Shown here: positions 5,281-22,545 of the stretch, piece by piece | Position numbering within the stretch: the first letter of the stretch is position 1 | Layout: the number at the start of each line of letters is the position of its first letter | From: Candidatus Hermodarchaeota archaeon | Lineage (GTDB): Archaea; Asgardarchaeota; Thorarchaeia; Thorarchaeales; Thorarchaeaceae | Assembly: GCA_048885865.1 (NCBI GenBank) | Contig: JBHLLF010000037.1 | Span: forward strand, 1 to 25,617 | Direction: 5' to 3' | DNA: 25,617 bases | Notes under the pieces: generated by a model | What the model was told of the DNA's origin: nothing | Seen by the model: only the letters and a program-made list of their open reading frames with translations | Database searches by the model: none | Translations under genes and position numbers: made by a program

Positions 5281-6735
5281 CTATTCATAGAGGCTCTTAC
5301 GGCCTACAATTATACCGACTATTAATGATACAATGAAGCCTCCCACAGCCCCACCCACGAAGCCGAGCTCACTTTGTCCGGGAGGCGGTGGAGGTGGGTC
5401 GACATAGCGGATAACTGTATGAGTTGTAACCTCTATCTCACCCGCAATCAAGTCATGCACAATGGATTCCGCTTCCAATATTGCAGCTCTTGCTTCCAGT
5501 AATGCACGATGCATTTCATTGATTGAGGCCGACATTTCCCACCAGTCATGCACGCCTCTAGATCTATCTTCATTGAATAGCTCCACAGTGTCACGAGCAG
5601 TAGTGATTGCCAATTGAGCCATAGCTACAATTGTGGCATTCGCACCTAGGGTAGCTTCATACCGCAATGCTTGATTTTCAATATCATCGGCTAGGGACAA
5701 TAGCTCCAGTGTCATGGCTTCATATGTGTCATGTATGACTTGGAGCTGGCCAAGTACATAGGTCTCCATGCCCTTATGACAGAACTCACTTTGCCCACAC
5801 GCCGCTTCAGCATTCACATTGAAAGAGTGGTTCATGAATCCTTGGCCATTTGGCTGGATGCCATAGCCATGACAGTCAACACACATGACTCCAGCAAGTT
5901 GATGGGAGCTGCCAATCCAGATGTCGTACATTGGCTGGTCTGGACCAGAATGACAGATTCTGCAAAGTTCTGTGCTGTTCTCCGCTCTAATCATTGCTGG
6001 ATATGATGACCAGTTTGTGTGAACCGCATGACAGGCAGGACATGTAATCGTATTGTATGAGCCGTCCACAGAGAATGATGTATTCACTGCAGGTGAAAAT
6101 GTCGAGATGAATTCGGGATTCCGATAATAGACAAATGCCTCTGTGCTATGACAATACATGCATCCAGTCGTTGCATGTTCACTTGCCCTAAGGTCGGCTA
6201 ACGAGTTTGCATGAGCCGTGTTTCGCCATACAATATGTTGATGAGGACCCAAAGGTGCGCTGGGACTGTGGCAGGTGCTGCAAAGTGCGCCTGAATAGTC
6301 TGACCACTCAGACCATAAGGCATCATGACAAGCACGGCAGTCCACTCCAATATCATCGTAGGAACCAGTGATATTGTTGTATCCGCTCGTATGGCAAGCT
6401 GCACATTCTGAATCGAAGATTGTATAGCTGATATTCATATCGCCGCCGATCTGCACATGAGTTGCATTGATCTCAATGATGTGAGTAGCATGGCCTGTCT
6501 TTACCCAGGCGTTGTATTCTGCTGGATGGCATGGTGCATTCCCGCAGTTTGTGATATCTCCGCCGCCCATTCCGGGTGAGGACATACAGTTTTGCTTGTC
6601 AGTAGAATATCCAAGTGGAATGGGAATTGCTGGACCTGGTGACCCTAGAAGCAAACTGAATCCTGCTATGCATAGGAATACGTAGTATCCAAATACCCAC
6701 TTCTTTCGCTCGAGATTATTTGCATATCTAACCAT
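5281..6735 (-). CDS. Membrane-anchored extracellular multiheme c-type cytochrome (7 CxxCH + CX4CH + CX5CH)
   Basis: CAACH, CRACH, CSTCH, CMYCH, CPACH, CRICH, CVDCH, plus CGNAPCH and CGQSEFCH. N-terminal signal/TM, C-terminal helical region with DRSRGVH, poly-Pro linker and C-terminal TM. Many N-x-S/T sequons. Confidence 0.93.
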   Translation of the reverse strand: MVRYANNLERKKWVFGYYVFLCIAGFSLLLGSPGPAIPIPLGYSTDKQNCMSSPGMGGGDITNCGNAPCHPAEYNAWVKTGHATHIIEINATHVQIGGDMNISYTIFDSECAACHTSGYNNITGSYDDIGVDCRACHDALWSEWSDYSGALCSTCHSPSAPLGPHQHIVWRNTAHANSLADLRASEHATTGCMYCHSTEAFVYYRNPEFISTFSPAVNTSFSVDGSYNTITCPACHAVHTNWSSYPAMIRAENSTELCRICHSGPDQPMYDIWIGSSHQLAGVMCVDCHGYGIQPNGQGFMNHSFNVNAEAACGQSEFCHKGMETYVLGQLQVIHDTYEAMTLELLSLADDIENQALRYEATLGANATIVAMAQLAITTARDTVELFNEDRSRGVHDWWEMSASINEMHRALLEARAAILEAESIVHDLIAGEIEVTTHTVIRYVDPPPPPPGQSELGFVGGAVGGFIVSLIVGIIVGRKSLYE

Positions 6736-6893: not shown

Positions 6894-7445
6894 TTGTCAA
6901 TAAGAACCCCGCGTTATATGTTCAAGATGGTCAGTTTGGGTGACGCGGCTACAGGTAAGACAAGCTGCATAGTCAGATACACCGAGAATAGCTTTGGGGA
7001 GTCGTATCAGGCAACTATGGGAACAAACATAGCAGTAAAGAATCTTCAAGTTGCCTTGACAGAAGAGAAGACTGTGCCGGTACAGATTGTTCTATGGGAT
7101 CTTGGCGGGCAACCAGATTTCAAGGAGCTTCGGCTGCGATATATGGCTGGAGCCAGTATTGCCTTCATCGTCTATGATGTGACGAATCCCAGATCGTTTC
7201 TTCATGTGTATGATTGGTATTCGAATTTCATGTCAGTGAATCCCGAAGCTACTGTGACTATAGTGGCCAACAAAATTGACTTGGAAGATAGGTGGGTACC
7301 TCCCGAAGCAGGACAAATGCTAAGTGATTGGCTTGACGTCACCCATGTTGAAACCAGCGCAAAAACAGGGGAGAATATTGAGGCCCTATTCACTGACCTC
7401 ATTGGCTCAGCAGTGAGAAAGTATCGTGACAGATCAATTGAGTGA
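6894..7445 (+). CDS. Rab-like Ras-superfamily small GTPase (eukaryotic signature protein)
   Basis: G1 GDAATGKT, G2 ATMG, G3 WDLGGQ, G4 NKID, G5 ETSAK. No C-terminal Cys prenylation motif. TTG start after AAGGAG. Confidence 0.93.
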   Translation: MSIRTPRYMFKMVSLGDAATGKTSCIVRYTENSFGESYQATMGTNIAVKNLQVALTEEKTVPVQIVLWDLGGQPDFKELRLRYMAGASIAFIVYDVTNPRSFLHVYDWYSNFMSVNPEATVTIVANKIDLEDRWVPPEAGQMLSDWLDVTHVETSAKTGENIEALFTDLIGSAVRKYRDRSIE

Positions 7446-7651: not shown

Positions 7652-9127
7652 CTATGGGACGAGGACTCCAGCTGCCAACGATGCATAGTCCAGGATTAGA
7701 CCGGGAAAGATGCCAATCATTATTGTAGCCACTACTGCAAGTAGCACAGCCGCAAGAGGAATCGTCGGAATTCGCAATGTTGTACCTTCTGTTGGTTCCA
7801 TGAAGTAGCAATACCTTAGGATTCTCAAGTAATAGCCAAGTGCAAATACTGAGTTTAGCACAGCAATTATCGCCAACCACCAAAGCCCAGCATCGACTGC
7901 AGCTCCAGGCAATAGGAACCACTTGAACCAGAATCCTGCTGTGAATGGTGCACCTGCCAGAGCAAAGACCATTATTGCCATCAATAGAGCAACAATCGGA
8001 GCACGAGTACTGAGTCCTTTCAAATCATCATATGTAACCTCTTTTCCAATGGAAACAGCCAATGCCCAAACCAGGATAAACGCGCCCGTCTTGATGAGTG
8101 CATGGGCAAACGCGGTAAACATCGCAGCTGCTGCTCCAAAGGCCGTTCCTGCTGCAATCCCCACGAAGAGTAGACCCATCATCATGATGGATGAGAAGGC
8201 TAACATTCTCATGATGTTGCGCTGAGCGAGTGCCAGAATATTCCCAATGATCATGGAAAGAATCGAGATAGTGACTACGACAGGCATCCATTCCATCTGT
8301 GCTGCAACAAATGCAACGAGTAGTATCCGAAGGAGGGCACTTACACCTGTCTTCTTGGTTGCACCAGCCAGATATCCTGTGACGCTTCCGTCAGCAGTTG
8401 CATACGCGTCGGGGACCCACATCCATCCTGGGAACACACCGACCTTGAATCCAAAACCGATCAGGAACAGCACCATAGACAGAAGCATTGCGTAGGCAGA
8501 CGGAGAAGCGGCGCTCCAGACGACACTAACAAATGCAGCAACAGCGGCAAAGCTTGTGGCACCTGTTGTACCATAGACAATTGCAATTCCAAATAGGATG
8601 AGAGTTGACGATAAGAGTCCCATGACGAAGTACTTGGTTGCTCCATCAATAGCTCCTCTGTGGGGCCCTAGCGCAACAAGCACATATGTCGGCGTACTCA
8701 TGAGCTCCCATGCCAAAAACAACGCCACAAGATCGGTTGCCATAACGACCCAAATTGCGCCAGCAAATGACATCATGAGGAGAAAGTTGTATGTACCCTT
8801 ATTTCCACCGTATGTCGTCGACGAAAGCAGTATTATGAATGCGACAACCAGAATGATCCAGATGAAGAAATCGCCAAACATGTCTCTTACAAATAGTCCT
8901 CCAAAGGAAGAACCCTGATCAATGAGAATCATCTCAAAGCCTGCAAGGGCAATGCCAATGAAACTGACTGCCAAAGGACTTCTTCTCATTCCTACAATGA
9001 GTGCCAAGATTCCGAAAAGGATGAGCGTCAAAGCTGGTAATGATACTAGCCAATCCGCTGGGACTAGTGCAAAGAAGGGACTCAAGATGTCGCTGATAGC
9101 ATCGATTATTGTGGAAACCTGTAGCAT
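7652..9127 (-). CDS. nuoN: Complex I-like subunit N (antiporter-like)
   Basis: About 14 TM helices; WELMS, GATKYF, FKVGVFP, WVPDAY, RMLAFSSI and TM12 FWFKW (Lys) motifs. Last gene of the cluster. Confidence 0.92.
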   Translation of the reverse strand: MLQVSTIIDAISDILSPFFALVPADWLVSLPALTLILFGILALIVGMRRSPLAVSFIGIALAGFEMILIDQGSSFGGLFVRDMFGDFFIWIILVVAFIILLSSTTYGGNKGTYNFLLMMSFAGAIWVVMATDLVALFLAWELMSTPTYVLVALGPHRGAIDGATKYFVMGLLSSTLILFGIAIVYGTTGATSFAAVAAFVSVVWSAASPSAYAMLLSMVLFLIGFGFKVGVFPGWMWVPDAYATADGSVTGYLAGATKKTGVSALLRILLVAFVAAQMEWMPVVVTISILSMIIGNILALAQRNIMRMLAFSSIMMMGLLFVGIAAGTAFGAAAAMFTAFAHALIKTGAFILVWALAVSIGKEVTYDDLKGLSTRAPIVALLMAIMVFALAGAPFTAGFWFKWFLLPGAAVDAGLWWLAIIAVLNSVFALGYYLRILRYCYFMEPTEGTTLRIPTIPLAAVLLAVVATIMIGIFPGLILDYASLAAGVLVP

Positions 9128-10671
9128 TATGGAATCACCCCTATCATATCGTTGACTATCGGTATCACTAGATTAAGCACAAGATCTGGCCATAGCCCGA
9201 GTATGATGACTGGTATCATCATCAAGATTGGTGCAATGAGATCACTCCATGGTGCTTCAGTGACTTCCTTCTCAGGATCAGGGTCACTGAACACAATTCT
9301 GTTCAGGGTCCAAAGGAGATATCCTACCGTGACAAAGATCCCAAAGGCGATGAAGCCGGACCAGATGTAGATGTTCACTGACCCAAACAGTACAAGGGCC
9401 TCTGCAATGAATCCGCTCATTCCAGGCAAGCCAAAGGCTGCAAAGACCGCGAGGATAAAGACAGCGGACATTCTAGGAGCTTTCGTCATGAGACCCATGA
9501 CATCAGGAATCAGTCTGCTTCCGGCCGAGTACTTCAGCTGGCCGGCAAGAATGAACATGACAGAAGAAATCATCCCATGGGATACCATCATGAATACTGC
9601 GCCCTGAACTGCAAGGCTAGCTGAGAAGAGTTGACCCTCTGTGGCTCCACCTCCAATGGCAAATCCTCCGATGGCAACTCCAAGTAACACCCATGCCATG
9701 TGGTTGATTGATGTATAAGCAACCATTGACTTCACATCTGTCTGGCCCATTGCTACGAATGCGGCGTAGATGCATGTGAAGACGGCGAGGACGGCGAATG
9801 GGATACTGAGTCGCGCAAATCCTTGCGGAACCATCCAGAGACCCAGTCTAATGAACCCGTATCCACCCATCTTCAAGAGTATTCCAGCGAGTATTACTGA
9901 GCCAGGAGTTGGAGCTTTTACATGGGCCCAAGGTAGCCAGTTGTGCAGAGGAAAGACTGGAAGCTTGACACCAGCACCCAGAAAGACTGCCAGTGCAAAG
10001 CCAATCTGAATGTTGATTGCAATTGGTGCAGCCTTGATCGCAATCATGTTGAATGTACCGGGTCCAAGGAAGAACAGCGCCATGAATGAGACCAACATCA
10101 CAGCTGAGCCAAGGTGTGTGTAGATGAAGAACTTGACAGCTGCGTGTTCACACCCCTCTTCGCCCCATCTTCCTATTATGAAGAACATCGGTATCAAGAC
10201 CAATTCCCAGAAGATGAAGAAGCTGATTAGATCAAATGACATGAATACGCCAAGCAGACCTGTCTGGAGCATCAGAAAGAACATGTAGTACAAGTGCTGC
10301 GATTTCTTGATATGGTTTGAACTGAGTGCTGCAATGAAGACCACGAGGTTTGATAGAAACACCATGGCAACGGATATTCCGTCAACACCTAGGTATATCT
10401 GGAGGAGAGCATTCCAGCTCCCAAATTGCACATCACTAAGTGTGAATGCCCATTCAAACCACATAGCTCCTGGATCTGGCAGAATTGCTACAATGAGGAC
10501 AAATGAAAGCAGGAGTTCAACGAATGTGACAATGAGCGTGAGAGCTCTGCCTCCTCTTGCACCGAGTATGTAGGCAAAGAATGCTGCAACCAATGGGGCA
10601 AATAGCATCAGTGGTAGTATGTTGTCCATTGGCAACATTGCGATGAGGTCCTGGATGAATCCGAGCTGCAT
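9127..10671 (-). CDS. nuoM: Complex I-like subunit M (antiporter-like)
   Basis: LGVDGIS, FFIFWELVLIPM, AVKFFIYT, VKLPVFPLHNWLPWAHVKAPT, LAGILLKMGGYG and GLPGMSGFIAE motifs. Confidence 0.95.
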   Translation of the reverse strand: MQLGFIQDLIAMLPMDNILPLMLFAPLVAAFFAYILGARGGRALTLIVTFVELLLSFVLIVAILPDPGAMWFEWAFTLSDVQFGSWNALLQIYLGVDGISVAMVFLSNLVVFIAALSSNHIKKSQHLYYMFFLMLQTGLLGVFMSFDLISFFIFWELVLIPMFFIIGRWGEEGCEHAAVKFFIYTHLGSAVMLVSFMALFFLGPGTFNMIAIKAAPIAINIQIGFALAVFLGAGVKLPVFPLHNWLPWAHVKAPTPGSVILAGILLKMGGYGFIRLGLWMVPQGFARLSIPFAVLAVFTCIYAAFVAMGQTDVKSMVAYTSINHMAWVLLGVAIGGFAIGGGATEGQLFSASLAVQGAVFMMVSHGMISSVMFILAGQLKYSAGSRLIPDVMGLMTKAPRMSAVFILAVFAAFGLPGMSGFIAEALVLFGSVNIYIWSGFIAFGIFVTVGYLLWTLNRIVFSDPDPEKEVTEAPWSDLIAPILMMIPVIILGLWPDLVLNLVIPIVNDMIGVIP

Positions 10672-10672
10672 T

Positions 10673-13000
10673 CTAGAGCACCCCCAGGGATAGTAGAACG
10701 ATTATGACCAGAATCCCAATCCCGAACATTATCACTCCAACGTAGTCATTGACTCGACCAGTCTGTGCAGACTGACTGGACTCTGAAGCGGCAACGCTGT
10801 ATGTAGAGACCCCTTCAGCAAAACCATCAACGACATTATCATCAAACCATTTCAGCTTCGTTGCTAGACCTTTGCCTGCGTCAGCAGACTTGAAGTCGAT
10901 ACCATCAATGATTTTGTTGTCAACATTCACTCGATAGCGTTCGGCCGCACTCAGGAATTTGTTCAGTATCCAATAGTAGAATTCGTTAATGTACCAACGA
11001 TGCTTCAGGAAGTTGTGCACCCTCCTCCTAAAGCCCTTCTCAGGTACCCAAGTGTTGGGAGTATCAGCACCCCTGATGTACATCACATATCCTGGAATTC
11101 CACCCAGAGCGAGCGCGCCTAGCGTGATCATGAAAGGCACGATTCCCGGATAGGTCAGCTTGACCTCTATCATATGCGCCAAGTTCTCAGCCCATGTATG
11201 ACTCTCTTCAAGCACAATGTTCTGAACGAACGGGAAGACAAGGAACGCAATGACAGTAAAGGCTGCTAGAAGATACAATGGCACCATCATTGCCGGACCT
11301 GGATCATGAGGAGTTGAATGATGCTGCTCTTCGAAGTGGTTGTCATGCGGTTCTTCATGCTTCTCTGAGTTACCTTCATGCGACTCTTCATGCTCCTCTA
11401 GGTCTTCATACTGCAACTCTTCATTGTCTTCTGGTTGCTCATCCTCATGTGAATCGTGTGAGTCTTGTGACTCATCATGGCCATGACTCTCCTTGGAAGG
11501 CCCATAGAAGGTGATACCCATGAGTCGAATGCTATAGAATATCGTGCAGGCAGCTGCCAGGACAGCAAAGAAGAATAGCATCCAACCTATCGGATTTGGC
11601 CATTCAACCGCCAGTTCATAGGCATACTCGATGATAGAGTCCTTTGACCAGAACCCTGAGAACGGCGGGATACCTGCGAGCGCAAGCACACCAATCCACA
11701 TCACGATGAAGGTCTTCCGCATGTATTGTTTGAGACCTCCCATCTTGGTGATGAACTTGGTATGAACGGCGTGTATAACGCCTCCTGATGCAAGGAATAG
11801 AAGGGCCTTGAATGCACCATGCGATATCACATGCATCACGCCGCTCAAGTACGCATCAGTGAAGTGAAGTCCCTCAGCCTGAAGGACGCCGCCCACACCT
11901 AGTGAGAGCATCATGTATCCAAGCTGGCTGAGTGTTGAGAATGCCAGTATCTGCTTGAGCTCGTTTGAGACCATTCCCATGGTCGCCGTCATGAGGGCAG
12001 TAATACCGCCGATGATTGCTACAAAGATGAAGAAGGTCAACGCTGCTTCAAACCCAATTGCCTGAAGTCCAGCGATATGTTCACCACCGTTGCCCTCACC
12101 ACCGGCTGCTGACACCATTGTGACCAGGAATCGAGCGGTGATATAGACACCCGCCTTGACCATCGTCGCAGCGTGGATGAGAGCTGAAACGCTTGTGGGA
12201 CCGGCCATAGCCTCCGGTAGCCAGACCTGCAGTGGAGCCTGTCCGGACTTGCCAATTGCACCCATGAAGATGAGTAGGAATGTAGGCACAAGCATCCCGA
12301 TGCCTGCCATGGTGCTCCACCATGATTGGGCATCAGCCGCCATCTCAGTGAAGGAGAATGTGCCAGTGAAGACGAACAGAATCAGGATACCGCCCAACAT
12401 GAATGCATCACCGATTCTCGTGACGACGAATGCCTTGGTCCCGCAGTGGGTGTTGTACTGTCCCTCGGTTTCGAATTGAAGAAGCGGGTTTGTGGAGTGA
12501 ATGTCTGATGGATCGGTCTCGGGAGGGTTCCTCTTGTCATTCCAGAATCCTATCAAACCATAGGAGCTGAATCCCATGATCTCCCATCCGATAAATGCAA
12601 TCAGAAGGTTGTTGCTGAGCACGAGAGTGAGCATTCCGCCACCGAACGCCAACATCAGGAAGAAGAATCGATCCCGGTCGCCCTCATGAGCCATGTACTC
12701 TGTAGAGTAGACATAGATGAGGAAACACAGAGTGCTGGCTAGAACCCCCATAACAACAGAGAGCGGGTCCAGGAGAACCTCGAACTCGAGTCCTAAGACC
12801 TCAATCCACATCCAGTGCGTGGTCTGGGTCGGGTTTCCAATCTCAGGTAGCAGCGACCAGCATAGAACCATAGAGATTCCCATGAGGATTGCAGGTGTCC
12901 AGTCTCGCGCTCGCTCGCTAAACCTTCCAACAAGTGGAACGAGGAGAGAGCCAAGCAGTGGAATCACGAGGATAAGCCAATAGGGTAGTCCAAGCAACAT
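10673..13000 (-). CDS. nuoL: Complex I-like subunit L with a His/acid-rich loop and an extended lateral helix
   Basis: LDPLS, GWEIMG, KAFVVTRIGD, GKSGQAPLQVWLPEAMAGPTSVSALIHAATMV, FSTLSQLGYM, FWSKD and QTG..Y motifs. ATG at 13000 follows GAGGTGA (track start TTG 13006). Confidence 0.95.
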   Translation of the reverse strand: MLLGLPYWLILVIPLLGSLLVPLVGRFSERARDWTPAILMGISMVLCWSLLPEIGNPTQTTHWMWIEVLGLEFEVLLDPLSVVMGVLASTLCFLIYVYSTEYMAHEGDRDRFFFLMLAFGGGMLTLVLSNNLLIAFIGWEIMGFSSYGLIGFWNDKRNPPETDPSDIHSTNPLLQFETEGQYNTHCGTKAFVVTRIGDAFMLGGILILFVFTGTFSFTEMAADAQSWWSTMAGIGMLVPTFLLIFMGAIGKSGQAPLQVWLPEAMAGPTSVSALIHAATMVKAGVYITARFLVTMVSAAGGEGNGGEHIAGLQAIGFEAALTFFIFVAIIGGITALMTATMGMVSNELKQILAFSTLSQLGYMMLSLGVGGVLQAEGLHFTDAYLSGVMHVISHGAFKALLFLASGGVIHAVHTKFITKMGGLKQYMRKTFIVMWIGVLALAGIPPFSGFWSKDSIIEYAYELAVEWPNPIGWMLFFFAVLAAACTIFYSIRLMGITFYGPSKESHGHDESQDSHDSHEDEQPEDNEELQYEDLEEHEESHEGNSEKHEEPHDNHFEEQHHSTPHDPGPAMMVPLYLLAAFTVIAFLVFPFVQNIVLEESHTWAENLAHMIEVKLTYPGIVPFMITLGALALGGIPGYVMYIRGADTPNTWVPEKGFRRRVHNFLKHRWYINEFYYWILNKFLSAAERYRVNVDNKIIDGIDFKSADAGKGLATKLKWFDDNVVDGFAEGVSTYSVAASESSQSAQTGRVNDYVGVIMFGIGILVIIVLLSLGVL

Positions 13001-13011
13001 TTTCAATCACC

Positions 13012-14529
13012 TCATGGAAGCAAGGTAGCTATTCCTTCTACACCAGGTATGATGACATCTAGTGCCAACCCTGGGAATATTCCAAACAACACAATGAGAA
13101 ATCCAAGGATAATCATCGGGGCAGTCATCCAATCAGAGCTCTCCTTGACATCCTCCAGTTCAGTTGGATGAGGTCCAAGGAAAACCTTCCAAAGATAACG
13201 GAGCATATACCCGGCACTCACTATTGAGCTTGAAACAGCCAAAATGGACAGGACAAAGAACTCGGGTCGTGCGAGCCCTCCTGATCCCATCAGAACTGCT
13301 TCAAAGCCCCCTAGAAACATCATCCATTCACTGGCGAATCCAGAAAGGGGAGGACTCCCTGCAATGCTCATTGCACCGATAGCTGCAGCGAATGCAGTGA
13401 TGGGCATTTTGTTTGAGAGACCGCCCATCTTGTCAACATCCCTCAGATGAGTCTGGTGAATCACCGCTCCAGCGGTCATAAACAAGAGTCCCTTGCTGAA
13501 GGCATGATTGATGAGATGAAACAGACCGCCAGCCACACCAAAAGTGGTAATCATGCCCAGGGCAAAGAGGACATATCCCATCTGCGACACTGATGAGTAA
13601 GCCAGCAGTCTCTTGATGTCTTTCTGGACAAGCGCCATAGCTCCTCCATAGAACATTGTGGCAACACCAAGCAGTCCAATCCAGAATGAGAGCGAGGCGG
13701 CTGCGGGTCCAAGCGTTATGATTCCGAAACGGACGAGAGCATATGCGCCGGTCTCAATCATTGCTCCAGATAGTAGAACAGAGATAGGAGTCGGTGCTTC
13801 TGCGTGAACTGGAGGCAGCCACCAATGCAATGGGAAAGCTGCCATCTTGACTAGGAAGCCGGCAGCGAACAGGATGAATATGATCTGCAACAGTCGTAGG
13901 TCTGACCAGATGGCTGGAGCCATTGCTAGAATAGAGTATAGCTCAAACGTACCCGTAAAGAAGTACAATAGACCCAAGGCAATCAATATACAGACTGCGC
14001 CAGCTTGAGTGTAGAGCCAGAACTTAATGGCGGTCCGTTTTCGGGTTTCAGGCAAGCCCCAAAACAGAATCAGGAAGTAAGATGGGACAAGCATGATCTC
14101 CCAAAAGATGAAGAATTCCAGCAAATTTGTTGCCAGCGTTACACCTTGCATTCCCATGATGAAGAATAACGTGTTTGCAAAGAATGTGGGCTTGTTCTCA
14201 GTATGTTCTGTGTAACCTACGGCATAAATCACCGAAAGAAACCCTAATACTACGACGGCAAACGTGATTGGGAAGGCAATCTCATCAAGGTAGAGACCAA
14301 ACTCCCCAAGTACAACTGACCAGGTGACTTTCTCAGCAGCTCTACCACCTTCCACCAGGACCCGGTAGAATGGAGGTACCATTAGCAATGCGCCCACTGC
14401 TGAGAATCCAACTGCCATCTTCCCTGATGTCTTTTCGAGTCGTCCGCGGAGTAGGTAGATCAAGAGACCTCCTATAAAGAGGACAAGCAAGGACAAGGTC
14501 ATGAATGGAAACTCGAACGACAGCTGCAT
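13012..14529 (-). CDS. nuoM: Additional NuoM/MrpD-like antiporter subunit (M')
   Basis: FFIFWEIMLVPSY, AIKFWLYT, VKMAAFPLHWWLPPVHAEAPTP, DIKRLLAYSSVSQMGY and GFASEW motifs. ATG at 14529 overlaps the nuoI stop (TGATG) after GGAGG. Confidence 0.85.
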   Translation of the reverse strand: MQLSFEFPFMTLSLLVLFIGGLLIYLLRGRLEKTSGKMAVGFSAVGALLMVPPFYRVLVEGGRAAEKVTWSVVLGEFGLYLDEIAFPITFAVVVLGFLSVIYAVGYTEHTENKPTFFANTLFFIMGMQGVTLATNLLEFFIFWEIMLVPSYFLILFWGLPETRKRTAIKFWLYTQAGAVCILIALGLLYFFTGTFELYSILAMAPAIWSDLRLLQIIFILFAAGFLVKMAAFPLHWWLPPVHAEAPTPISVLLSGAMIETGAYALVRFGIITLGPAAASLSFWIGLLGVATMFYGGAMALVQKDIKRLLAYSSVSQMGYVLFALGMITTFGVAGGLFHLINHAFSKGLLFMTAGAVIHQTHLRDVDKMGGLSNKMPITAFAAAIGAMSIAGSPPLSGFASEWMMFLGGFEAVLMGSGGLARPEFFVLSILAVSSSIVSAGYMLRYLWKVFLGPHPTELEDVKESSDWMTAPMIILGFLIVLFGIFPGLALDVIIPGVEGIATLLP

Positions 14530-14960
14530 CAACGGAACCTCCTTCCACGCCACTCAAGTGGGTCTCGATCGAGAGTTTCTATCTTGTCAGGACCGTAGAG
14601 TAAGTCCTCCCTCTCTCCTTCGCTAATATCTACAACCTGAGTGTGAAACAGTGCGTCAAACCTGCAAGCTTGAACGCATAGGCCACAGAATATACACCGT
14701 GTGTAATCAAAATAGAGGGCGGCGTCTTTCTCGAAATGCTTGTCACTCTTATCGATGCTAATAGCGACAACAGGACACGCACGTACACATTGCATACATG
14801 CAGTGCATTTCTCACGTACATGGATATGCCTTCCACGAGTCCTCTCGGGATATTCCCTGTCCTCGAAGGGATAGAAGTATGTGAATGGACGGGACATCAC
14901 TTGACGGAATATGTGTCTCAATATCTGGAATATGTCACCTAGATTTCTGAAGAATCCCAT
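14529..14960 (-). CDS. nuoI: Complex I-like subunit I, 2x[4Fe-4S]
   Basis: FTYFYPFE...RGRH, CTACMQCVRACP and CIFCGLCVQAC motifs. Confidence 0.95.
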   Translation of the reverse strand: MGFFRNLGDIFQILRHIFRQVMSRPFTYFYPFEDREYPERTRGRHIHVREKCTACMQCVRACPVVAISIDKSDKHFEKDAALYFDYTRCIFCGLCVQACRFDALFHTQVVDISEGEREDLLYGPDKIETLDRDPLEWRGRRFR

Positions 14961-14966
14961 CTTACT

Positions 14967-16097
14967 TTACCCTCCTATTCCAAGAATTGCTTGTAGCAAG
15001 GGGATGTTGGCTACTCCCAACATCACAAGCATAACGTTCAGTATTGACAATGGTAGCAGGTACTTCCAACAGAAGTAGACAATCTGGTCTTGTCTTAGCC
15101 GATGGAATGATGAAGTCACAACGACGAAGAAGAAGAACACTATCAGGAACTTGATGATGAAGATCACACTTCCTGGCAAGAAGGCTGGTCCATGGAATCC
15201 TCCAAGGAACAACGCAACTATCAGCGCTGAATAGAGCGCCTGCTCGGCAAACTCCGCGAAATAGGTGAGAGTGAAATAGATACCACTGAATTCAGTCCTC
15301 CAACCAAAGATGACCTCCGAGTCAGCAACTGGAGCATCGAATGGGAATGTACCAACGGATGCGATAGCTGCCACTAGGAATGTGGCAACATTGATTGGCA
15401 ACAGGAAAATGAACCAGATATTTGATTGTGCTTGTGTGATTCCCATTACACTGAGAGAGCCAGCTAGCATTGCAGGTCCTACGGTTGAGATGATGAGTGG
15501 AATCTCACTCGCAAATTGATTGTTGGCTGCTCTGAAGCCACCGATGAGTGTATACTTGGACCCACTTATCCAACCAGATAGCAATGCTACTATAGGCACT
15601 GCAGTTAGAAATGCGAAGACTAGCACTAGGCCGACCGATAAGTCAGCAATGTACCAAATTGGATCCCATGGGATGAAAGCAAATGGGATTAGGACAACCA
15701 ACAACAATAGTGATGGAAGGAACCTATACATCCAGCGTTTCGCCTTGTCAGGGATTATTGTTTCCTTTCCTACGAGCTTAATCGCATCAGCGAAGAGTTG
15801 AAGTCCTCCGTATTTGCCCAAGTGAAATGGACCACGCCTGTCTTGAATTCTGCCCCAGAGCTTGCGAGTAAACCAAACAGCAAAGATGATTGTCATGAGA
15901 ATGAAGACAAGACCTGGGAATAGCACTGCTCGAATTAGGAAGAAGAAGTTGGCTACATCGAATAGAGCTGCCCAAATCCATGTGAAGATGCCCCATATCC
16001 AGTAGAAGATTCCACTGACTATGCCGAACAACCACTGAATGACTCCATATAGCCATTGAGGGATTCCTTGAAGCCATGCAAAGAAATCTATCTGCAA
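14967..16097 (-). CDS. nuoH: Complex I-like subunit H
   Basis: RKLWGRIQDRRGP, LQLFADAIKLVGKE, SKYTLIGGFRA, PFD, EFSG, LFLGG and RLRQDQ motifs. Start is uncertain: TTG at 16097 after GGAGGTG, or ATG at 16112. Confidence 0.92.
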   Translation of the reverse strand: MQIDFFAWLQGIPQWLYGVIQWLFGIVSGIFYWIWGIFTWIWAALFDVANFFFLIRAVLFPGLVFILMTIIFAVWFTRKLWGRIQDRRGPFHLGKYGGLQLFADAIKLVGKETIIPDKAKRWMYRFLPSLLLLVVLIPFAFIPWDPIWYIADLSVGLVLVFAFLTAVPIVALLSGWISGSKYTLIGGFRAANNQFASEIPLIISTVGPAMLAGSLSVMGITQAQSNIWFIFLLPINVATFLVAAIASVGTFPFDAPVADSEVIFGWRTEFSGIYFTLTYFAEFAEQALYSALIVALFLGGFHGPAFLPGSVIFIIKFLIVFFFFVVVTSSFHRLRQDQIVYFCWKYLLPLSILNVMLVMLGVANIPLLQAILGIGG

Positions 16098-16111
16098 CGT
16101 GACACCTCCCA

Positions 16112-17248
16112 TCAGCGATCCCACCACCCTGGATACGGATCAAGCGATCCGAAAACGACAATGAAGTCTGCAAACTTCGCACCCGGAACCAGATGCTTCA
16201 GTGAATAGTAAGAGTTGAAACAGGGGCCACGTATCTTGGCCCTGTAAGGAGTCTGCGCCTTCTCAGTAGTCTTAAGCCAGAGGGTTGAAATTCCTCTTGT
16301 CCCTTCAACACGACCGTAGGCCTCACCTTCCGGAAGTCTGTTGGCCTTGGCACGTGCCTTGGGATCAATGATGGGGCCCTCGGGAACTAATGGTAGTAAT
16401 TTCCGGATTATCTCTGCTGAGGTTTCCATCTCCTTGAATCGCTGGACCATTCTGTCGTAGGCATCACTCTCTCCGGGGTGGTCCTCGCTCTCAGTAATTG
16501 GAACTTCCCAATCGATCATATCATAGGCAAGATTCGGGTCAGGGGAATCTTTGCGGAGGTCCATCGGCAGACCACATGCCTTGATTGGCGGACCGCTAAG
16601 ACCAAACTTCAGACCTTGCTTCAGAGTGTATTGACCAATGCCCTCTGTCCTTGCTCGGAAAGTAGGACTGCCCATAAGCATATCCCGCATCACAGGCATC
16701 CGATCTTCAAACCGCTCTAAAGCAATGTCAAGCTTCTTGAGCACCTTGTCTGTGAAGTCGTATTTCACACCACCGGGTGTGCTATAGGAAACGGCATGTC
16801 GGGACCCGCTGAGCTCCTCGAAAGTATCGAGGAAGAACTCACGGTCAACCCATGGCCACAGCAACATAGCGAATAACCCAAGCTCAGCTGAGAACTGACC
16901 CCACCAGAACTGCAACGAATGTATTCGGCTGGCCTCCATCATGATGGTTCGCATAACTTTCGCTCGTTCAGGTACTTCTAGTTCCGCAATCTTCTCAACC
17001 GCCATGATGTAAGGATACTCGGCCAGAAATGCCTCAAGCATGCAGAGCCGTTCCATGATAAGAGACCCTTGCCTGAAGTTCCTGTACTCCAAGCACTTCT
17101 CAGCTGATCGGTGGAAATATCCGGCGTTAGGGTCGCATTCTACTACAAAGTCTCCAACGAGAGTAAGTTTGGCGGCCCATCCGTGCGCAGATACGTGCTG
17201 AGGTCCGAACCAGACCTCGGTTGTTTCGTCTAGAATGTCAGGGCTCAT
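16112..17248 (-). CDS. nuoD: Complex I-like subunit D (no NiFe site)
   Basis: FGPQHVSAHG, GYFHRSAEK, RTEGIG, GLSGP, GEAYGRVEGTRG, PYRAKIRGP and C-terminal SLDPYPGWWDR. Lacks both CxxC hydrogenase motifs. Confidence 0.92.
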   Translation of the reverse strand: MSPDILDETTEVWFGPQHVSAHGWAAKLTLVGDFVVECDPNAGYFHRSAEKCLEYRNFRQGSLIMERLCMLEAFLAEYPYIMAVEKIAELEVPERAKVMRTIMMEASRIHSLQFWWGQFSAELGLFAMLLWPWVDREFFLDTFEELSGSRHAVSYSTPGGVKYDFTDKVLKKLDIALERFEDRMPVMRDMLMGSPTFRARTEGIGQYTLKQGLKFGLSGPPIKACGLPMDLRKDSPDPNLAYDMIDWEVPITESEDHPGESDAYDRMVQRFKEMETSAEIIRKLLPLVPEGPIIDPKARAKANRLPEGEAYGRVEGTRGISTLWLKTTEKAQTPYRAKIRGPCFNSYYSLKHLVPGAKFADFIVVFGSLDPYPGWWDR

Positions 17249-17766
17249 TCAGTCGCACCTCCTTCTGGTGTCTTTGAAGGCGTTCTGTCGGCCTCCTCGA
17301 GCCGGGCCCTATCTGTCACAAAGCTCTTCCTCAGAGGATATTTCCCTTCGAGCTCTTCAGGAAGCAGCAAAAGCCGGAGATCAGGATGTCCTTTGAAAGT
17401 GATTCCAAACATCTCCCAGGTTTCTCTCTCATGCCACTCCATGCCTGGGAAAATATCACAAATTGTATCCACCTCGGGATTGGTACCCTCAAGTGAAACT
17501 CGGAGGTGATATTGAGTTCTATTGGCTCGCGACCAGAATATGTAGATGACCTCATACTTGTCTTCTTGAAGGTCAACTCCAAAAACGCTCTCTGGAAATG
17601 CATCATCAATCTGCTCGTCAATCATCCCAACAACATCTCTGATCTTGTCCGCTGGTACTATGCACTCAAGGATACCATCTTCCTTTGGAGTACATTCAAC
17701 ACCAGGAAACTTGTTGACAATCTGCCTACCAAATGTGGCACCAGACATAGGAGCACCTTCAGACAT
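17245..17766 (-). CDS. nuoC: Complex I-like subunit C
   Basis: WHERETWEMFGITFKGHPDLRLLLLP...YPLRK signature. GGAGGA upstream. Confidence 0.93.
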   Translation of the reverse strand: MSEGAPMSGATFGRQIVNKFPGVECTPKEDGILECIVPADKIRDVVGMIDEQIDDAFPESVFGVDLQEDKYEVIYIFWSRANRTQYHLRVSLEGTNPEVDTICDIFPGMEWHERETWEMFGITFKGHPDLRLLLLPEELEGKYPLRKSFVTDRARLEEADRTPSKTPEGGATE

Positions 17767-18079
17767 CGATCTTATCCTCCTGTGAGATTGGTCTTCCTAG
17801 GTCCACTGTTCCATGCCGCCTATTGTAAGCAAGCATCAAAACTAAGGCTAAAGCAGTGTGAGCTGCGGCAACTGATATCATGAGAATGATGAGAGCCTGT
17901 CCTGTCAGCGTGAAGGTAGGGCTGTAGACTGCAAAAGCAGCTATAGCGATGCTGACTCCGTTCCCCATAATCTCCGCCCCAATTAGGATTCTAATGAGGT
18001 TCCTTTTCACCATCATTCCATAGGCTCCGAGGCCAATCAGGATGAATGCAACAGCAAGGTACCAAGAAAGCGGGACCAT
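17759..18079 (-). CDS. nuoK: Complex I-like subunit K
   Basis: 3 TM helices; GLGAYGMMVKRNLIRILIGAEIMGNG and GQALII..VAAA motifs. Confidence 0.92.
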   Translation of the reverse strand: MVPLSWYLAVAFILIGLGAYGMMVKRNLIRILIGAEIMGNGVSIAIAAFAVYSPTFTLTGQALIILMISVAAAHTALALVLMLAYNRRHGTVDLGRPISQEDKIDV

Positions 18080-18753
18080 TAGTCAGTCACCTCCTCACTG
18101 ACTTCCGCCTCAGGAGTTTCTTCTGGGGTCTCTTCAGGCTCCGGAAGCTCTTCTGGCTCAGGCTCAGGTTCTTCAGGTTCTGGTGCTGCTTCGATGCCAA
18201 ACTCGGCAACTATACCCTTCATCAGTTCTGCCTTATCCATCTTCATGAGCGCGATGACACCCACGAGAGATGTCACAATGATGAGTGCAATGAGTTGAAC
18301 ATAGATTCCGTGATCACCCCACAGCCACTCAGCGAGAAGAGCCACGTTGTTTGAAGCGTCTATTGTGCCTTCTGGAATTGTGTCACTCCATGGGAAGGTC
18401 AGGGCTAGAATTGCAGAGAGAAACACTATGGAGCCAGATACAAGTATACCAACCTTCTTTGCACGGGGCGACTCAATTGACTCGAGTGTGGAATCTTGTG
18501 CTCTTGGCAGCAGGAGAACACCGAATATGATCAACGCACTTATGCCTCCAGTATACACCGCAATCTGCATACCAGCAACAAAAGGTGCTTCCAACAAAAG
18601 GAAGAATCCAGCTACAAATGACGCCATGAACCCAAAGAAGAATGCAGCATAGACAATCTCTCTGTGCTCCAGAGCGAGGTAAGCTAGAACAATTACAATT
18701 CCTGCGATCAACAGAAACTCAACCGACTCGAATGCAGACTCAAATCCTTGCAT
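18079..18753 (-). CDS. nuoJ: Complex I-like subunit J with a Glu/Pro-rich tail
   Basis: IVYAAFF, LEAPFVAGMQIAVYTGGI signature, 5 TM helices, and a PEPEEPEPEPEE tail. Confidence 0.9.
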   Translation of the reverse strand: MQGFESAFESVEFLLIAGIVIVLAYLALEHREIVYAAFFFGFMASFVAGFFLLLEAPFVAGMQIAVYTGGISALIIFGVLLLPRAQDSTLESIESPRAKKVGILVSGSIVFLSAILALTFPWSDTIPEGTIDASNNVALLAEWLWGDHGIYVQLIALIIVTSLVGVIALMKMDKAELMKGIVAEFGIEAAPEPEEPEPEPEELPEPEETPEETPEAEVSEEVTD

Positions 18754-19211
18754 TAGTGATGTTCCCTCCCTGCTGTGTGTGGCTCTTCGAGATGTCTGGC
18801 TTTTGCAGCTCGATATGCCTCGAGAGTTTCCTTACCATCAAGTGAGGTTTGAGGCAGATACCTCATCGCGTATCCAATTGCACCCATGATAATCACAACA
18901 AAGATGAAAGTCTGCCAAGCGACTACTGGGTTCAACCGTAGCGGAGATACAGTAAGCAACCAGAGAAATGCGCCCATCACGTCTATGATGACAAAGAGAA
19001 TTGTATAGATGATGTAACTGTAGGGAAATGACATCCGTGCTGGTCCTATTGGCTCCTCTCCGCATTCATATGTAGATGTCTTCTCAGAGTTTTGAAGTAT
19101 ATGGGGCCGCAGAACCCATGATGCCAATAGCATGATCACAATCAGGACAATTACAAGAATGGCCCACACTAAGACTGGGATGAATTGGAGAAACAGCCTA
19201 TCTGTCTGCAA
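18753..19211 (-). CDS. nuoA: Complex I-like subunit A
   Basis: KTSTYECGEEPIG signature, LFVIID, 3 TM helices. GGAGG upstream of the TTG start. Confidence 0.92.
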   Translation of the reverse strand: MQTDRLFLQFIPVLVWAILVIVLIVIMLLASWVLRPHILQNSEKTSTYECGEEPIGPARMSFPYSYIIYTILFVIIDVMGAFLWLLTVSPLRLNPVVAWQTFIFVVIIMGAIGYAMRYLPQTSLDGKETLEAYRAAKARHLEEPHTAGREHH

Positions 19212-19554
19212 TCTTCAAGACCCTCCTAGGTCCGTTCTAGAATGAAAAACCTTCGAGCCACCTAGAATGGATGGAACCATTCCAAACACATTCTTCCGGA
19301 ATCCTTTGTCCATAGCAGTCAAGCTCCAACCTTTGTTAGGTGACGTATTCCAGGTCCAATCGTGTACACGACAGCCAAGATTATTTCCAAAACCATCAAG
19401 GCTGGTTGCCTTATGGTGTGGACTACCTTGTGCTGCGAAGGTCGGCGTACAAAGTAGCATGATAAAAAGGCTTCGACCAGTTTCCCTCAAAGGGCTTAAA
19501 TAGAGCACATATTCCAGATGGAAACAGTTTACCGACAAGATACAGGTGATACAA

Positions 19555-19905
19555 TTGTCATACAAAGAAGAGGGTACATTCTTCTACTACCTCGCGCTTC
19601 TAATCGGAATGGGATTCATTGGAGCATACTTCTGGATCATCTTGACTGTGGCACCAATAGATCTCAACTTCCAATACTTCATCTTCTTGAGTGGGCTGTT
19701 CTTCGTAGTAGCGACTCTTAGTATTGCATATGCAGCAACACGCAGTGGACGAATAGGTGCCACGATGGCCTCCGGTATCTTCGGTGGCGTACATGCCTAT
19801 TTGGATATAACTCAGTACACGGACCTAGCAGGTATTCTCCTCTTTGCATGGGTTGCCTTCGGTCTGCTGCTAGCCTTTGCTGCGTTTGCTTGGCTTCGTG
19901 AATGA
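19555..19905 (+). CDS. Hypothetical 4-TM membrane protein (paralog of 20005-20550)
   Basis: Four hydrophobic helices. TTG at 19555 follows GGTGA (track start GTG 19546). TTAAATA box at about 19496-19502. Motif-level similarity to the neighbouring gene. Confidence 0.8.
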   Translation: MSYKEEGTFFYYLALLIGMGFIGAYFWIILTVAPIDLNFQYFIFLSGLFFVVATLSIAYAATRSGRIGATMASGIFGGVHAYLDITQYTDLAGILLFAWVAFGLLLAFAAFAWLRE

Positions 19906-20004: not shown

Positions 20005-20550
20005 CTATTCAGTAGGAGCTTCCTCGGGTGATTCAGTTGATTCTTCAGCTGCGTCACTAGATTCTAGTTCAGGTGCCGCTTCTGACTCGGCTTCACCCTC
20101 ACTGGCTTCCTCTCCCACTGACTCAGGCTTAGGCTCAGGCTCAGGTACCGGCTTGTATTTGTAGTCGCTGACTTCCATAATTCCTGGAGTCACACTTACC
20201 TCCATTGGATCCAGCATTGAGAAGCCACCAGCCAGAAGGATTGCGCCGCCCATTCCCCAGGATGCATAGATGATGTCACTGCCAAAGTAGACCAAGGCAT
20301 AGATTGTGTAGAGAACTCCAATGACAATTGCCATCGAGAGCATGTTGACCTTTATCCTGCCTCGCTTCGGTCTGAAGTATCCTACGAGAAAGAACACCAT
20401 TACCAGCGGACCGCCAGCCATGAATGGGAAGTGCAGCGCCATTGCGGTATCGGCAATAGAAGCTAGCAGGAGGTCGAAGACATACGCACTTAGAATAATT
20501 GTGCCAATCAGTAGCATGCAGTACTGGTCACTGTCTTCACGCAATTTCAT
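20005..20550 (-). CDS. Hypothetical 4-TM membrane protein with an acidic tail
   Basis: ATGA overlap with the FAD-NuoB stop suggests translational coupling. Four TM helices and an E/P/S-rich C-terminus. Confidence 0.82.
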   Translation of the reverse strand: MKLREDSDQYCMLLIGTIILSAYVFDLLLASIADTAMALHFPFMAGGPLVMVFFLVGYFRPKRGRIKVNMLSMAIVIGVLYTIYALVYFGSDIIYASWGMGGAILLAGGFSMLDPMEVSVTPGIMEVSDYKYKPVPEPEPKPESVGEEASEGEAESEAAPELESSDAAEESTESPEEAPTE

Positions 20551-22487
20551 TGAATCATCCCCATTGCGTCCTGGTTCTCATACTTCAGCTGCCAGTGTGT
20601 AGTACCTGCACGAATCTTGTTCTGAAGTATCAAATGAGCCCTGACGAAGTCAGATGGCTTAGGGGGACAGCCGGGCAAATAGACGTCGACAGGGACTACG
20701 GACTCAGGTGGAACCTGCAGCGAATATCCGTCCCAAAAAACGCCCCCACTGGCTGCACACTGTCCGAAGGCAATCACGAACTTGGGGTCTGGCATCATCT
20801 CGTAGACTCTTCGAAGTCGTGGAGCCATCTTCTTTGTTAGAGACCCAGATATCCATAGCACATCACACTGACGCGGGCCAAATAGTGGGAGCATCCCGAA
20901 TCGTTCAAAGTCCCATCTTGACGCAATTCCAGCTGCACCATCCACCATGCAACATCCTAATCCGTATTGCACTGGCCATGGACTATGCGCTCGGCCCCAT
21001 CGCAGCATCCACTTGAGCGGCGGCAGGTTCTGGAGCCACTTCAGAAGTATTGGAGCAATCCTGCCAAACCCATTCCTGAATAGGTCATAGAATATCCAGA
21101 GGAAGTACTTACCAAACTTGAGAATAAGTGGTAGCCAATAGGCAAACACCTTCCCAGGGTTTGATATCTCCTTCTTGTCGTACTTGAGCTTTGCTGCACG
21201 AATCTTTGCCAATCGCTGTTTTCCAAAGTACTGACTAGCTTGGTTTGCAAACCAGATTCCCGTGGAGTGTGCGTGACCGCCGTGTCTCTGTGCAATCTTG
21301 AAGACGACAAAGCTCTGAGCCCATGATAACATGAAGAACCTGCGGCGCTCATCTTCGAGGAAATAACCCATCATAGTGACGGCATTTGGTGAGTTGACAT
21401 AGCCGTCAATGCCAGCTTGCGCAGATCCTTGCTCAAATTGCCAATCATCCAGTATTGCTGTGAGGTTCTCAAGGGGAGCAAATGCTTGGCCAACGACGAG
21501 GGTGGGACCAGCCTTCTTGACTCGCATTGGATAGAAGCGGTCATGCCATTCGTGAGCAGCGACATGCTCATCGTAGACAGTTCCCTTGTACATCTCCGTG
21601 ACTTCTTCAACAACTCTCAAGCCTTCTGCAATCTCCTCCTCATCTCCATCGTATGCAACCATAATGCTGCCGTGATGAACAGGGAATGGGAACTTCTCTT
21701 CACTGTCCCAAATCTTCTTCTTCAAGTCAGTGTATTTGGACTCTTCAAACTTAATCGTGAATGGAAGAGGGCCATCTTCGAGTATCTTCTCAATGGCATG
21801 GACCATCAGATAATTCTCAGGGAAACTTGACACGATTACCTTGATCGGTGTGAGAGGCTTGATCTTCAGGGTGACCTTTGTAATTATTCCGAGGATTCCT
21901 TCGGTGTCGCAGAATAGGTCACAGTCCTTACTTTTGACAATCTTGCCAGTCGGTAAGACCACCTCAAAAGCTACGACATTCTTGTTAATGTTTCCGTACT
22001 TGAGAGAGCCAATTCCATCGCCGCCCTGTGCAACCCATCCACCAATGGTTGCTGAGAGTCCAGAAGAGGGATAACAACGCAAATCGAAGTTCTTTCGGTT
22101 CAACTCGAATTGCAGGTTCGCCCATGAGAGTCCTGGTTCAACGGTGACGGTCATGTTTTCTTCATCAATTTCAACAACCTTGTCCATAACACGCATGTCA
22201 ACTATGATGCCGCCCTTACGAGGAATAGCACCACCATATCCTGAAGTGCCCGCCCCCCTTGGTACAAGAGGGACCTTGTACTTGTTTGCGAACTTGTAAA
22301 GGAATTTAATCTCTTCAGGGGTTTGAGGCTGAACAATCGCGTCAGGCTTGACGTTCATTAACCAGCCCACTTGTTTGGGCAAAGAACCAACATCCATGCC
22401 ATGGATTACGAGCTCATGCTTCTCTGTGATCACGCGGTCTTCATAGACCTCAGCGAGTTCCGTCACTAGCTTTGGCTTCAGTGTCAT
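20547..22487 (-). CDS. nuoB: Fusion of a GlcD/D-lactate dehydrogenase-type FAD-linked oxidoreductase with complex I subunit B
   Basis: N-terminal part: VPRGAGTSGYGG, VTVEPG, PSS..ATIGGWVA, LKYG, TEGILGIITKVTLK, ISNPGK. C-terminal part: GLGCC, DFERFG, PRQCD, KMAPRLRRVYEMMPDPKFVIAFGQCAASGG, VDVYLPGCPPKP. One uninterrupted frame. ATG at 22487 (track start TTG 22502). Confidence 0.93.
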   Translation of the reverse strand: MTLKPKLVTELAEVYEDRVITEKHELVIHGMDVGSLPKQVGWLMNVKPDAIVQPQTPEEIKFLYKFANKYKVPLVPRGAGTSGYGGAIPRKGGIIVDMRVMDKVVEIDEENMTVTVEPGLSWANLQFELNRKNFDLRCYPSSGLSATIGGWVAQGGDGIGSLKYGNINKNVVAFEVVLPTGKIVKSKDCDLFCDTEGILGIITKVTLKIKPLTPIKVIVSSFPENYLMVHAIEKILEDGPLPFTIKFEESKYTDLKKKIWDSEEKFPFPVHHGSIMVAYDGDEEEIAEGLRVVEEVTEMYKGTVYDEHVAAHEWHDRFYPMRVKKAGPTLVVGQAFAPLENLTAILDDWQFEQGSAQAGIDGYVNSPNAVTMMGYFLEDERRRFFMLSWAQSFVVFKIAQRHGGHAHSTGIWFANQASQYFGKQRLAKIRAAKLKYDKKEISNPGKVFAYWLPLILKFGKYFLWIFYDLFRNGFGRIAPILLKWLQNLPPLKWMLRWGRAHSPWPVQYGLGCCMVDGAAGIASRWDFERFGMLPLFGPRQCDVLWISGSLTKKMAPRLRRVYEMMPDPKFVIAFGQCAASGGVFWDGYSLQVPPESVVPVDVYLPGCPPKPSDFVRAHLILQNKIRAGTTHWQLKYENQDAMGMIQ

Positions 22488-22545
22488 GTGGACTCTCTCC
22501 AAGAGACGAAGCTGCTCTCAGGTCACGGTCGTGGAATCATGCTCC

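Follow-up and report, generated by a model that had tools for sequence, protein, structure and literature searches.

How many antiporter-like subunits does the complex I-like enzyme of a thorarchaeon carry, what keeps them in one membrane arm, and where did the additional one come from? These questions are raised by a 25,617-nt stretch of DNA (the whole of which is referred to here as the window; contig JBHLLF010000037.1, assembly GCA_048885865.1, positions 1 to 25,617) from Candidatus Hermodarchaeota archaeon, a member of the Thorarchaeaceae within the Asgardarchaeota. A nuo gene cluster in the window encodes four large antiporter-like proteins, namely M', NuoL, NuoM and NuoN. We consider that the locus probably encodes a complex I-like enzyme of the '2M' type (that is, with a second NuoM-type gene), comprising eleven core subunits without NuoE, NuoF and NuoG and bearing four antiporter-like subunits in its arm, and that this architecture has a common origin with forms found in the TACK archaea (Thaumarchaeota, Aigarchaeota, Crenarchaeota and Korarchaeota). 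The reading draws on gene content, synteny, an insertion in the lateral helix of NuoL together with its distribution, and phylogenetic placement, all of which were established directly.

Four antiporter-like genes and a lengthened NuoL helix

The four genes follow one another in the same orientation on the minus strand. M' (13012..14529) encodes 505 residues from the ATG at 14529, with GTG 14553 as an alternative start; it is followed by nuoL (10673..13006; 777 residues, or 775 from the likelier start, ATG 13000 after GGTGA), by the gene for an Escherichia coli-like NuoM (9127..10671; 514 residues) and by nuoN (7652..9127; 491 residues). All four match PF00361, with E-values of 1e-56 to 1e-71 (1.6e-71 for M'), NuoL matches PF00662 as well, and none of the genes contains an internal stop. 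The junction of nuoI and M' reads TGATG and is preceded, at a distance of eight bases, by GGAGG. M' and nuoL are 11 nt apart, and the next two junctions are TAGaATG (L/M) and TAATG (M/N). NuoL scores 492 bits against NF005141 (NuoL), and NuoN 283 bits against TIGR01770, below the cut-off of 332.6. Both proteins encoded on either side of nuoL exceed the TIGR01972 (NDH_I_M) cut-off of 264 bits, at 310 bits for M' and 411 bits for NuoM. By alignment, E144, K228, E259 and E401 of M' correspond to E144, K234, K265 and E407 of E. coli NuoM, at which positions the canonical M has E, K, K and E. M' thus keeps the Glu of transmembrane helix (TM) 5, the Lys of TM7 and the Glu of TM12, and has Glu (E259, codon 13753-13755) in the position of the TM8 Lys. 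A preliminary description of the window had reported an intact and tightly coupled M'-L-M-N set, two distinct NuoM-like genes flanking nuoL and exactly these motifs, and on each of these points we agree with it.

A second line of evidence comes from NuoL itself. Alignment of NuoL C-termini, together with motif spacing, reveals a 26-residue insertion (residues 714-739; 10790..10867, minus strand) relative to E. coli NuoL and to the L subunits of three-pump archaeal complexes, placed just before the conserved QTG that precedes TM16. The DxxxxDG module of the helix is doubled here, as DNKIIDG at residue 696 and DDNVVDG at residue 722, with a spacing of exactly 26 residues, and the insertion reads as a duplication of the protein's own helix module. 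In the AlphaFold2 (AF2) model of NuoL, whose predicted local distance difference test score (pLDDT) is 71.6, the helix runs from residue 659 to 743 and TM16 from 752 to 774. A 26-residue insertion at the lateral helix is a signature of 2M complex I (PMC9040806), and 2M enzymes have been described as having a 'lengthened NuoL' (PMC6606698).

The insertion follows the number of pump genes closely. It is present in every four-pump operon examined: those of the thorarchaea, of genomes G025 and G035, of a Thaumarchaeota metagenome-assembled genome (MAG; locus L097), of Nitrososphaerales (L121) and of Bathyarchaeota (L067, L079, L092 and L128). The L097 operon is complete, with the order A-B-C-D-H-I-J-K-m-L-M-N, and that of L128 reads K-m-L-m-m ('m' marks an archaeal assemblage of M-type subunits, to which we return below). 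The controls were paralogous complexes of the same lineage and the NuoL of ammonia oxidisers, the latter compared by alignment; no insertion was seen in E. coli NuoL, in 11 Asgard three-pump complexes (some of them in the same genomes) or in 9 ammonia-oxidiser K-M'-L-N operons. Among NuoD-type operons, it occurs in 19/19 with four pumps and in 0/9 ammonia-oxidiser operons with three. Within the sampled loci, the insertion and the second NuoM-type gene together bear out the earlier interpretation of the locus as a 2M complex I.

From these observations an arrangement of the arm can be proposed. All four antiporter-like subunits (N, M, M' and L) would sit in one membrane arm, and the extra 26-residue docking module would add roughly one subunit width between the body of NuoL and its C-terminal anchor helix. 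The fourth subunit would then lie inside the arm, between N and L, rather than beyond L, because only a subunit placed between the NuoL body and the TM16 anchor needs more helix. M' probably stands next to L, given the adjacency of the two genes and their joint exchange in one genome (G002, see below). Judging from the genes, such an enzyme might translocate roughly 5 ions per 2 e-, against 4 with three pumps. It would connect a membrane carrier with a low-potential donor, which could be ferredoxin (via NuoI), the flavin domain of the NuoB fusion, or both, and electrons could flow either way.

Several points weigh against this proposal. M' is devoid of the TM8 Lys, but the only M-type subunit of the ammonia oxidisers is likewise devoid of it. 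The lateral-helix part of the NuoL model is of low confidence, a usual outcome when a strap helix is modelled in isolation. The NuoL of genome G039 (89% complete; L038, G039:C47) is longer by one module, although that genome has just three PF00361 genes; that of G035 (L027/L054, G035:C25) has 53 extra helix residues, equal to two modules, with four pump genes; and several hydrogenase-type L subunits of Bathyarchaeota also bear insertions. Because of these mismatches, helix length appears to be strong but not strict evidence for the number of pump genes. On the acceptor side, no MqnA/D or NrfD was found in the genome, and the quinone-binding Tyr position of the NuoD-type subunit is occupied by Met. 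Finally, we infer assembly, subunit order and ion stoichiometry from the genes alone.

The helix mismatches and the missing TM8 Lys would also suit an alternative, in our view an unlikely one, in which M' and M do not occur together in the arm: they would serve two three-pump isoforms, or one of them would be a non-pumping spacer, and the extra module would hold something else. The genes are, however, translationally coupled in one operon; M' and M are both retained across the family, at 61-99% identity, and both keep the TM5 Glu, the TM7 Lys and the TM12 Glu. The sharp division of the insertion between four-pump and ammonia-oxidiser operons also speaks for joint use of the two subunits, as does the exchange of M' together with L.

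This exchange was found in genome G002 (L051, G002:C63, 3192-6933), where M' and L share 70% and 65% identity with those of the window, against 92-98% for the flanking D, H, I, M and N. The M' and L of G002 reach at most 77% and 74% identity to any sampled genome, and its D, H, I, M and N 92-99% to genomes of the same genus. The M'-L pair looks like a cassette that was replaced as a unit by recombination, as might be expected of two subunits that have to be compatible. It may alternatively reflect a chimeric contig, although this would need two switches falling at gene borders.

Elsewhere the set is stable. M' orthologues with at least 67% identity occur in 12/16 genomes of the same genus and in 5/8 other genera of the family, and orthologues at 69-96% identity carry the name Candidatus Thorarchaeota. 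The order H-I-M'-L-M-N, with the NuoB fusion upstream, is kept in all fetched loci of the family, and the gene order recurs in two genomes from outside the family, G025 of another family in the same taxonomic order and G035 of another family in the same phylum. A survey of synteny had been proposed in the preliminary description. Three genomes of the family (G017, G018 and G021, all at least 94% complete) are without M', but they are without the whole complex as well and have only [NiFe] hydrogenase-type complexes; no relative within the family was seen to have a long-helix NuoL without M'.

Identity and origin of the two M-type subunits

If two M-type subunits are present, it must be asked what M' is and which of the two was added. 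By sequence matches alone its identity appears ambiguous. The best matches of M' in the PDB, MrpA (7qru_A) and MbhH (6cfw_H), are slightly ahead of NuoM; in a plasmid search the best matches are annotated as MrpA, with only Mrp and ordinary Nuo references returned; and there is a weak match to PF00662. The AF2 model (pLDDT 91.1) predicts a full fourteen-helix NuoM-type antiporter fold, with broken TM7 and TM12 (breaks at 228-238 and 389-396) and without a lateral helix, and the best Foldseek matches are NuoM chains, 8e9h_M (TM-score 0.92) and 8qby_M (TM-score 0.90).

A phylogeny of M' against its possible relatives had been proposed in the preliminary description. In three trees (FastTree and IQ-TREE site-mixture), which took in archaeal 2M operons, M' belongs to the M-type superclade and is separate from L, N, MrpA, MrpD and HyfB/D/F. 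Inside the superclade, the M of the operon groups with E. coli NuoM, and M' with the archaeal assemblage 'm'. A tree with thorarchaeal M' and M as one clade was rejected (log-likelihood difference 160; p = 4.6e-60 in the approximately unbiased test, p-AU), so that M' is not a recent duplicate of M; the two are ancient paralogues.

The origin of the four-pump form was followed by a scan with an M' profile in one genome per species, which yielded loci from Asgard archaea, Bathyarchaeota, Aigarchaeota, Culexarchaeia and Thaumarchaeota. In these archaea, ammonia oxidisers included, M' generally comes before L, and M' is thus the ordinary archaeal M-type subunit, which precedes nuoL in both TACK and Asgard operons. 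The ammonia oxidisers have three pumps in the order K-M'-L-N; relative to their operon, the added gene is the E. coli-like M and not M', and M may equally be the 'extra' subunit.

The complete arrangement is also found beyond the Asgard archaea. Bathyarchaeota, Nitrososphaerales and a Thaumarchaeota MAG all have the order K-M'-L-M-N, with the insertion (FD..V(V/I)DG) at the same place in NuoL. The M subunits in position 3 of the thorarchaea, G025, G035, Bathyarchaeota and Thaumarchaeota form one clade (97 in the Shimodaira-Hasegawa-like approximate likelihood ratio test, SH-aLRT), with the M of G039 and E. coli NuoM outside it, and thorarchaeal NuoN clusters with the NuoN of E. coli and of TACK archaea. 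The 'm' in position 3 of Bathyarchaeota is sister to TACK M'. In view of the same gene order, the same insertion motif and the single clade of position-3 M, we conclude that the four-pump architecture most plausibly shares its origin with the forms of Bathyarchaeia and of some Nitrososphaeria, rather than having been invented by Asgard archaea.

An independent Asgard origin, which the preliminary description had put forward as possible in view of the M'-L-M-N order, would have M' recruited from a hydrogenase-type L-m-m set into a canonical L-M-N complex. Some of the phylogenetic evidence points that way: in free trees the M' of the thorarchaea and G025 stands outside the TACK M' clade and near the position-2 'm' of hydrogenase-type complexes in Odin, Baldr and Heimdall archaea, with which it has the TM8 Glu in common, and thorarchaeal NuoL groups with Asgard L subunits. 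A tree that joins thorarchaeal and G025 M' with TACK M' is nevertheless not rejected (p-AU 0.155), the order from which the proposal started is the general archaeal one as far as M' and L are concerned, and Bathyarchaeota and Nitrososphaeria have the same operon order and insertion. The placement of M and N also speaks against it. We regard this origin as improbable.

The Glu in TM8 is not peculiar to the 2M form of M'. It is found in all M' sequences of the thorarchaea and G025, but also in the position-2 'm' of hydrogenase-type complexes in Odin, Baldr, G029 and G035; the position is Gly in TACK M', the sole M-type subunit of ammonia oxidisers included, Gln in one Heimdall sequence and Lys in Aigarchaeota. 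Because this variation among Gly, Glu and Gln spans the 'm' family and takes in the three-pump ammonia oxidisers, loss of the TM8 Lys is a trait of the archaeal family and not an adaptation to four pumps.

The notion that M' is part of a separate Mrp antiporter or Hyf/Mbh-type hydrogenase that merely adjoins the nuo genes is, in spite of the MrpA, MbhH and PF00662 matches mentioned above, close to refuted, as a whole-genome search returned no PF00361 gene other than these four in the 3.58-Mb, 87%-complete genome, neither mrpB-G genes nor a [NiFe] large subunit with RxCGxC and DPCxxC motifs were found in the window, NuoD is without Ni-binding cysteines, and M' has the TM12 Glu that is a hallmark of NuoM, a fold closest to NuoM chains and a place in the M-type superclade.

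Gene cluster and probable path of electrons

The nuo cluster on the minus strand consists of two units. The first holds a gene for NuoB fused to a flavin adenine dinucleotide (FAD) domain of the GlcD/D-lactate-dehydrogenase type (20547..22502; 651 residues; PF01565, PF02913 and PF01058), together with orf181, a conserved membrane open reading frame (ORF) of 181 residues (20005-20550). The second runs from 19211 down to 7652 in the order nuoA-J-K-C-D-H-I-M'-L-M-N. In the spacer of about 800 nt between orf181 and nuoA lies a membrane ORF of 119 residues on the plus strand (19546-19905), which has no Pfam match. It occurs in every thorarchaeal operon examined, at 27-98% identity, and divides the cluster between two transcription units. 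An ORF at 19215-19565 (116 residues) was rejected as a gene, being antisense to a conserved ORF on the opposite strand.

Upstream of the antiporter-like genes, and also on the minus strand, nuoA (18753..19211; PF00507), nuoJ (18079..18753; PF00499), nuoK (17759..18079; PF00420) and nuoC (17245..17766; PF00329) precede the gene for the NuoD-type subunit (16112..17248; PF00346), which according to its translation and alignments is without [NiFe] cysteine motifs. These are followed by nuoH (14967..16127; PF00146, 6e-88) and by nuoI (14529..14960), whose product has two 4Fe-4S motifs (Fer4 families). Within nuoL, between TM14 and the next helix, the translation contains an acidic, His-rich loop (about residues 505-570; 11297..11494, minus strand) that is predicted to be disordered (pLDDT <50 at 507-563); its length varies among thorarchaeal genomes and it is absent outside them. 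A Pfam scan limited to the window, the rest of the genome not being searched, returned no NuoE, NuoF or NuoG domain.

At this locus NuoB is seen only as the fusion, in which a hydrophobic linker joins the FAD domain to NuoB. The fusion is kept in thorarchaeal relatives; among the sequences found, only those of Thorarchaeota type, at 73% identity or more, have the three-domain form. The nearest unfused relatives of the protein are glycolate-oxidase-like proteins or proteins with FAD and Fe-S parts; the NuoB of G025 and of G035 is unfused. NuoD reads RLCMLE and ends in PYPGWWDR. The Met in its RLCM, a motif conserved in all thorarchaeal copies, takes the place of the quinone-binding Tyr in RLDY of Yarrowia NUCM, and the His of the GPQH..HG motif is kept. 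The best PDB match of NuoD is MbsL, of the sulfane reductase MBS of Pyrococcus furiosus, which has RICV at the quinone-Tyr position. Three UbiA-family genes are present in the genome.

Electrons probably enter from ferredoxin at NuoI, by analogy with what has been proposed for other enzymes without NuoEFG, and/or from the fused flavin domain. It is also conceivable, if doubtful, that the enzyme goes beyond the usual 2M complex and forms a respiratory machine of its own. The NuoB fusion would then couple its four-pump arm permanently to a flavoenzyme of the GlcD/D-lactate-dehydrogenase type, the ion gradient would push electrons uphill from a donor at the level of 2-hydroxyacids to ferredoxin, or the reaction would run in reverse, and M', with Glu in place of the TM8 Lys, would be a functionally specialised module.

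Other genes flank the cluster. A gene for a Ras-family small GTPase (6894-7445, plus strand) adjoins nuoN on the opposite strand, which agrees with the DNA being of Asgard origin, and is likewise found beside it in several relatives (L043, L044, L045 and L057). Downstream of nuoN lies a multihaem cytochrome c gene (5281-6735, minus strand), whose product has seven CXXCH motifs and weak similarity to NrfA/c552; a homologue also follows nuoN in another thorarchaeal MAG (L056). On the far side, divergent from the NuoB-fusion gene, a gene for a very large protein with PKD/Ig-like repeats (22758-25616, plus strand) runs off the end of the window, and a neighbour of this kind also occurs in G015, G011 and G020.

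Relation to known enzymes and significance

A close precedent is the bacterial 2M complex I (Chadwick, Hemp, Fischer and Orphan 2018, ISME J 12:2668, as relayed in PMC9040806, PMC6606698, PMC7117926 and PMC12342949). According to these accounts, it resembles the thorarchaeal enzyme in its second NuoM-type gene and four antiporter-like subunits, in the 26-residue NuoL insertion and in the missing NuoE and NuoF, and an extra ion per 2 e- as well as a ferredoxin-linked or reverse mode have been proposed for it. The thorarchaeal enzyme differs in having NuoB fused to a flavoenzyme, in the unusual order A-J-K-C-D-H-I and in the order M'-L-M-N, compared with L-M1-M2-N in Chloroflexi (PMC7117926). 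Three loci among the Chloroflexi matches to M' (L127, L132 and L133) were considered as bacterial 2M operons and set aside, as they are [NiFe] hydrogenase clusters (RICGICSHVH).

Among archaea, 2M complexes have already been reported from heterotrophic marine Thaumarchaeota of 'clade 2' (PMC7300363) and from Angelarchaeales and Nitrososphaerales (PMC9038741); for Asgard archaea, a literature search turned up no such report. The archaeal 2M operons have in common with the thorarchaeal one the order K-M'-L-M-N, the place of the FD..V(V/I)DG insertion, the clades of position-3 M and of N, and a NuoD that is not of the hydrogenase kind. They differ in that TACK M' has Gly, and not Glu, in TM8 and does not enclose the thorarchaeal and G025 M' in the free tree; in addition, only the thorarchaea have the NuoB fusion and the acidic loop of NuoL. 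The eleven-subunit complex I of ammonia oxidisers (A-B-C-D-H-I-J-K-M'-L-N) likewise places before L an M' of the same paralogue family, without the TM8 Lys, and is without NuoEFG; it departs from the thorarchaeal enzyme in that its pump genes number three, with nothing corresponding to the position-3 M, and in that its NuoL helix is without the insertion.

A further comparison concerns the complex I-like group 4 [NiFe]-hydrogenases of Asgard archaea, which have been described with a full lateral helix (PMC11291895; bioRxiv 10.1101/2024.07.04.601786). Their L is related to that of the thorarchaeal complex, and their position-2 'm', with the same TM8 Glu, is the nearest relative of thorarchaeal M'. 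In contrast to the latter complex, they keep the RxCGIC Ni-binding motif, have the order K-L-m-m and three pumps, and are without the 26-residue insertion. Asgard loci with this order and RxCGIC large subunits are L020, L021, L022, L026, L028-L030, L032-L034, L061, L062 and L083, and the 2M operon occurs together with a hydrogenase-type complex in G019, G023, G024 and G025.

The thorarchaeal enzyme thus belongs to the 2M kind that is already known, and Thorarchaeia and at least two other Asgard lineages join the carriers of four-pump complex I. The archaeal four-pump form is one architecture, K-M'-L-M-N with a duplicated helix module, that extends across TACK and Asgard archaea. The label of 'extra' subunit would accordingly shift: the M-type subunit that is standard in archaea is the divergent M', and it is the E. 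coli-like M that is limited to the four-pump form. Asgard archaea, which are mostly anaerobic, would invest in an NADH-independent pump of high stoichiometry, if the hypothesis of extra pumping is correct, and this bears on models of energy metabolism in the archaeal ancestor of eukaryotes.

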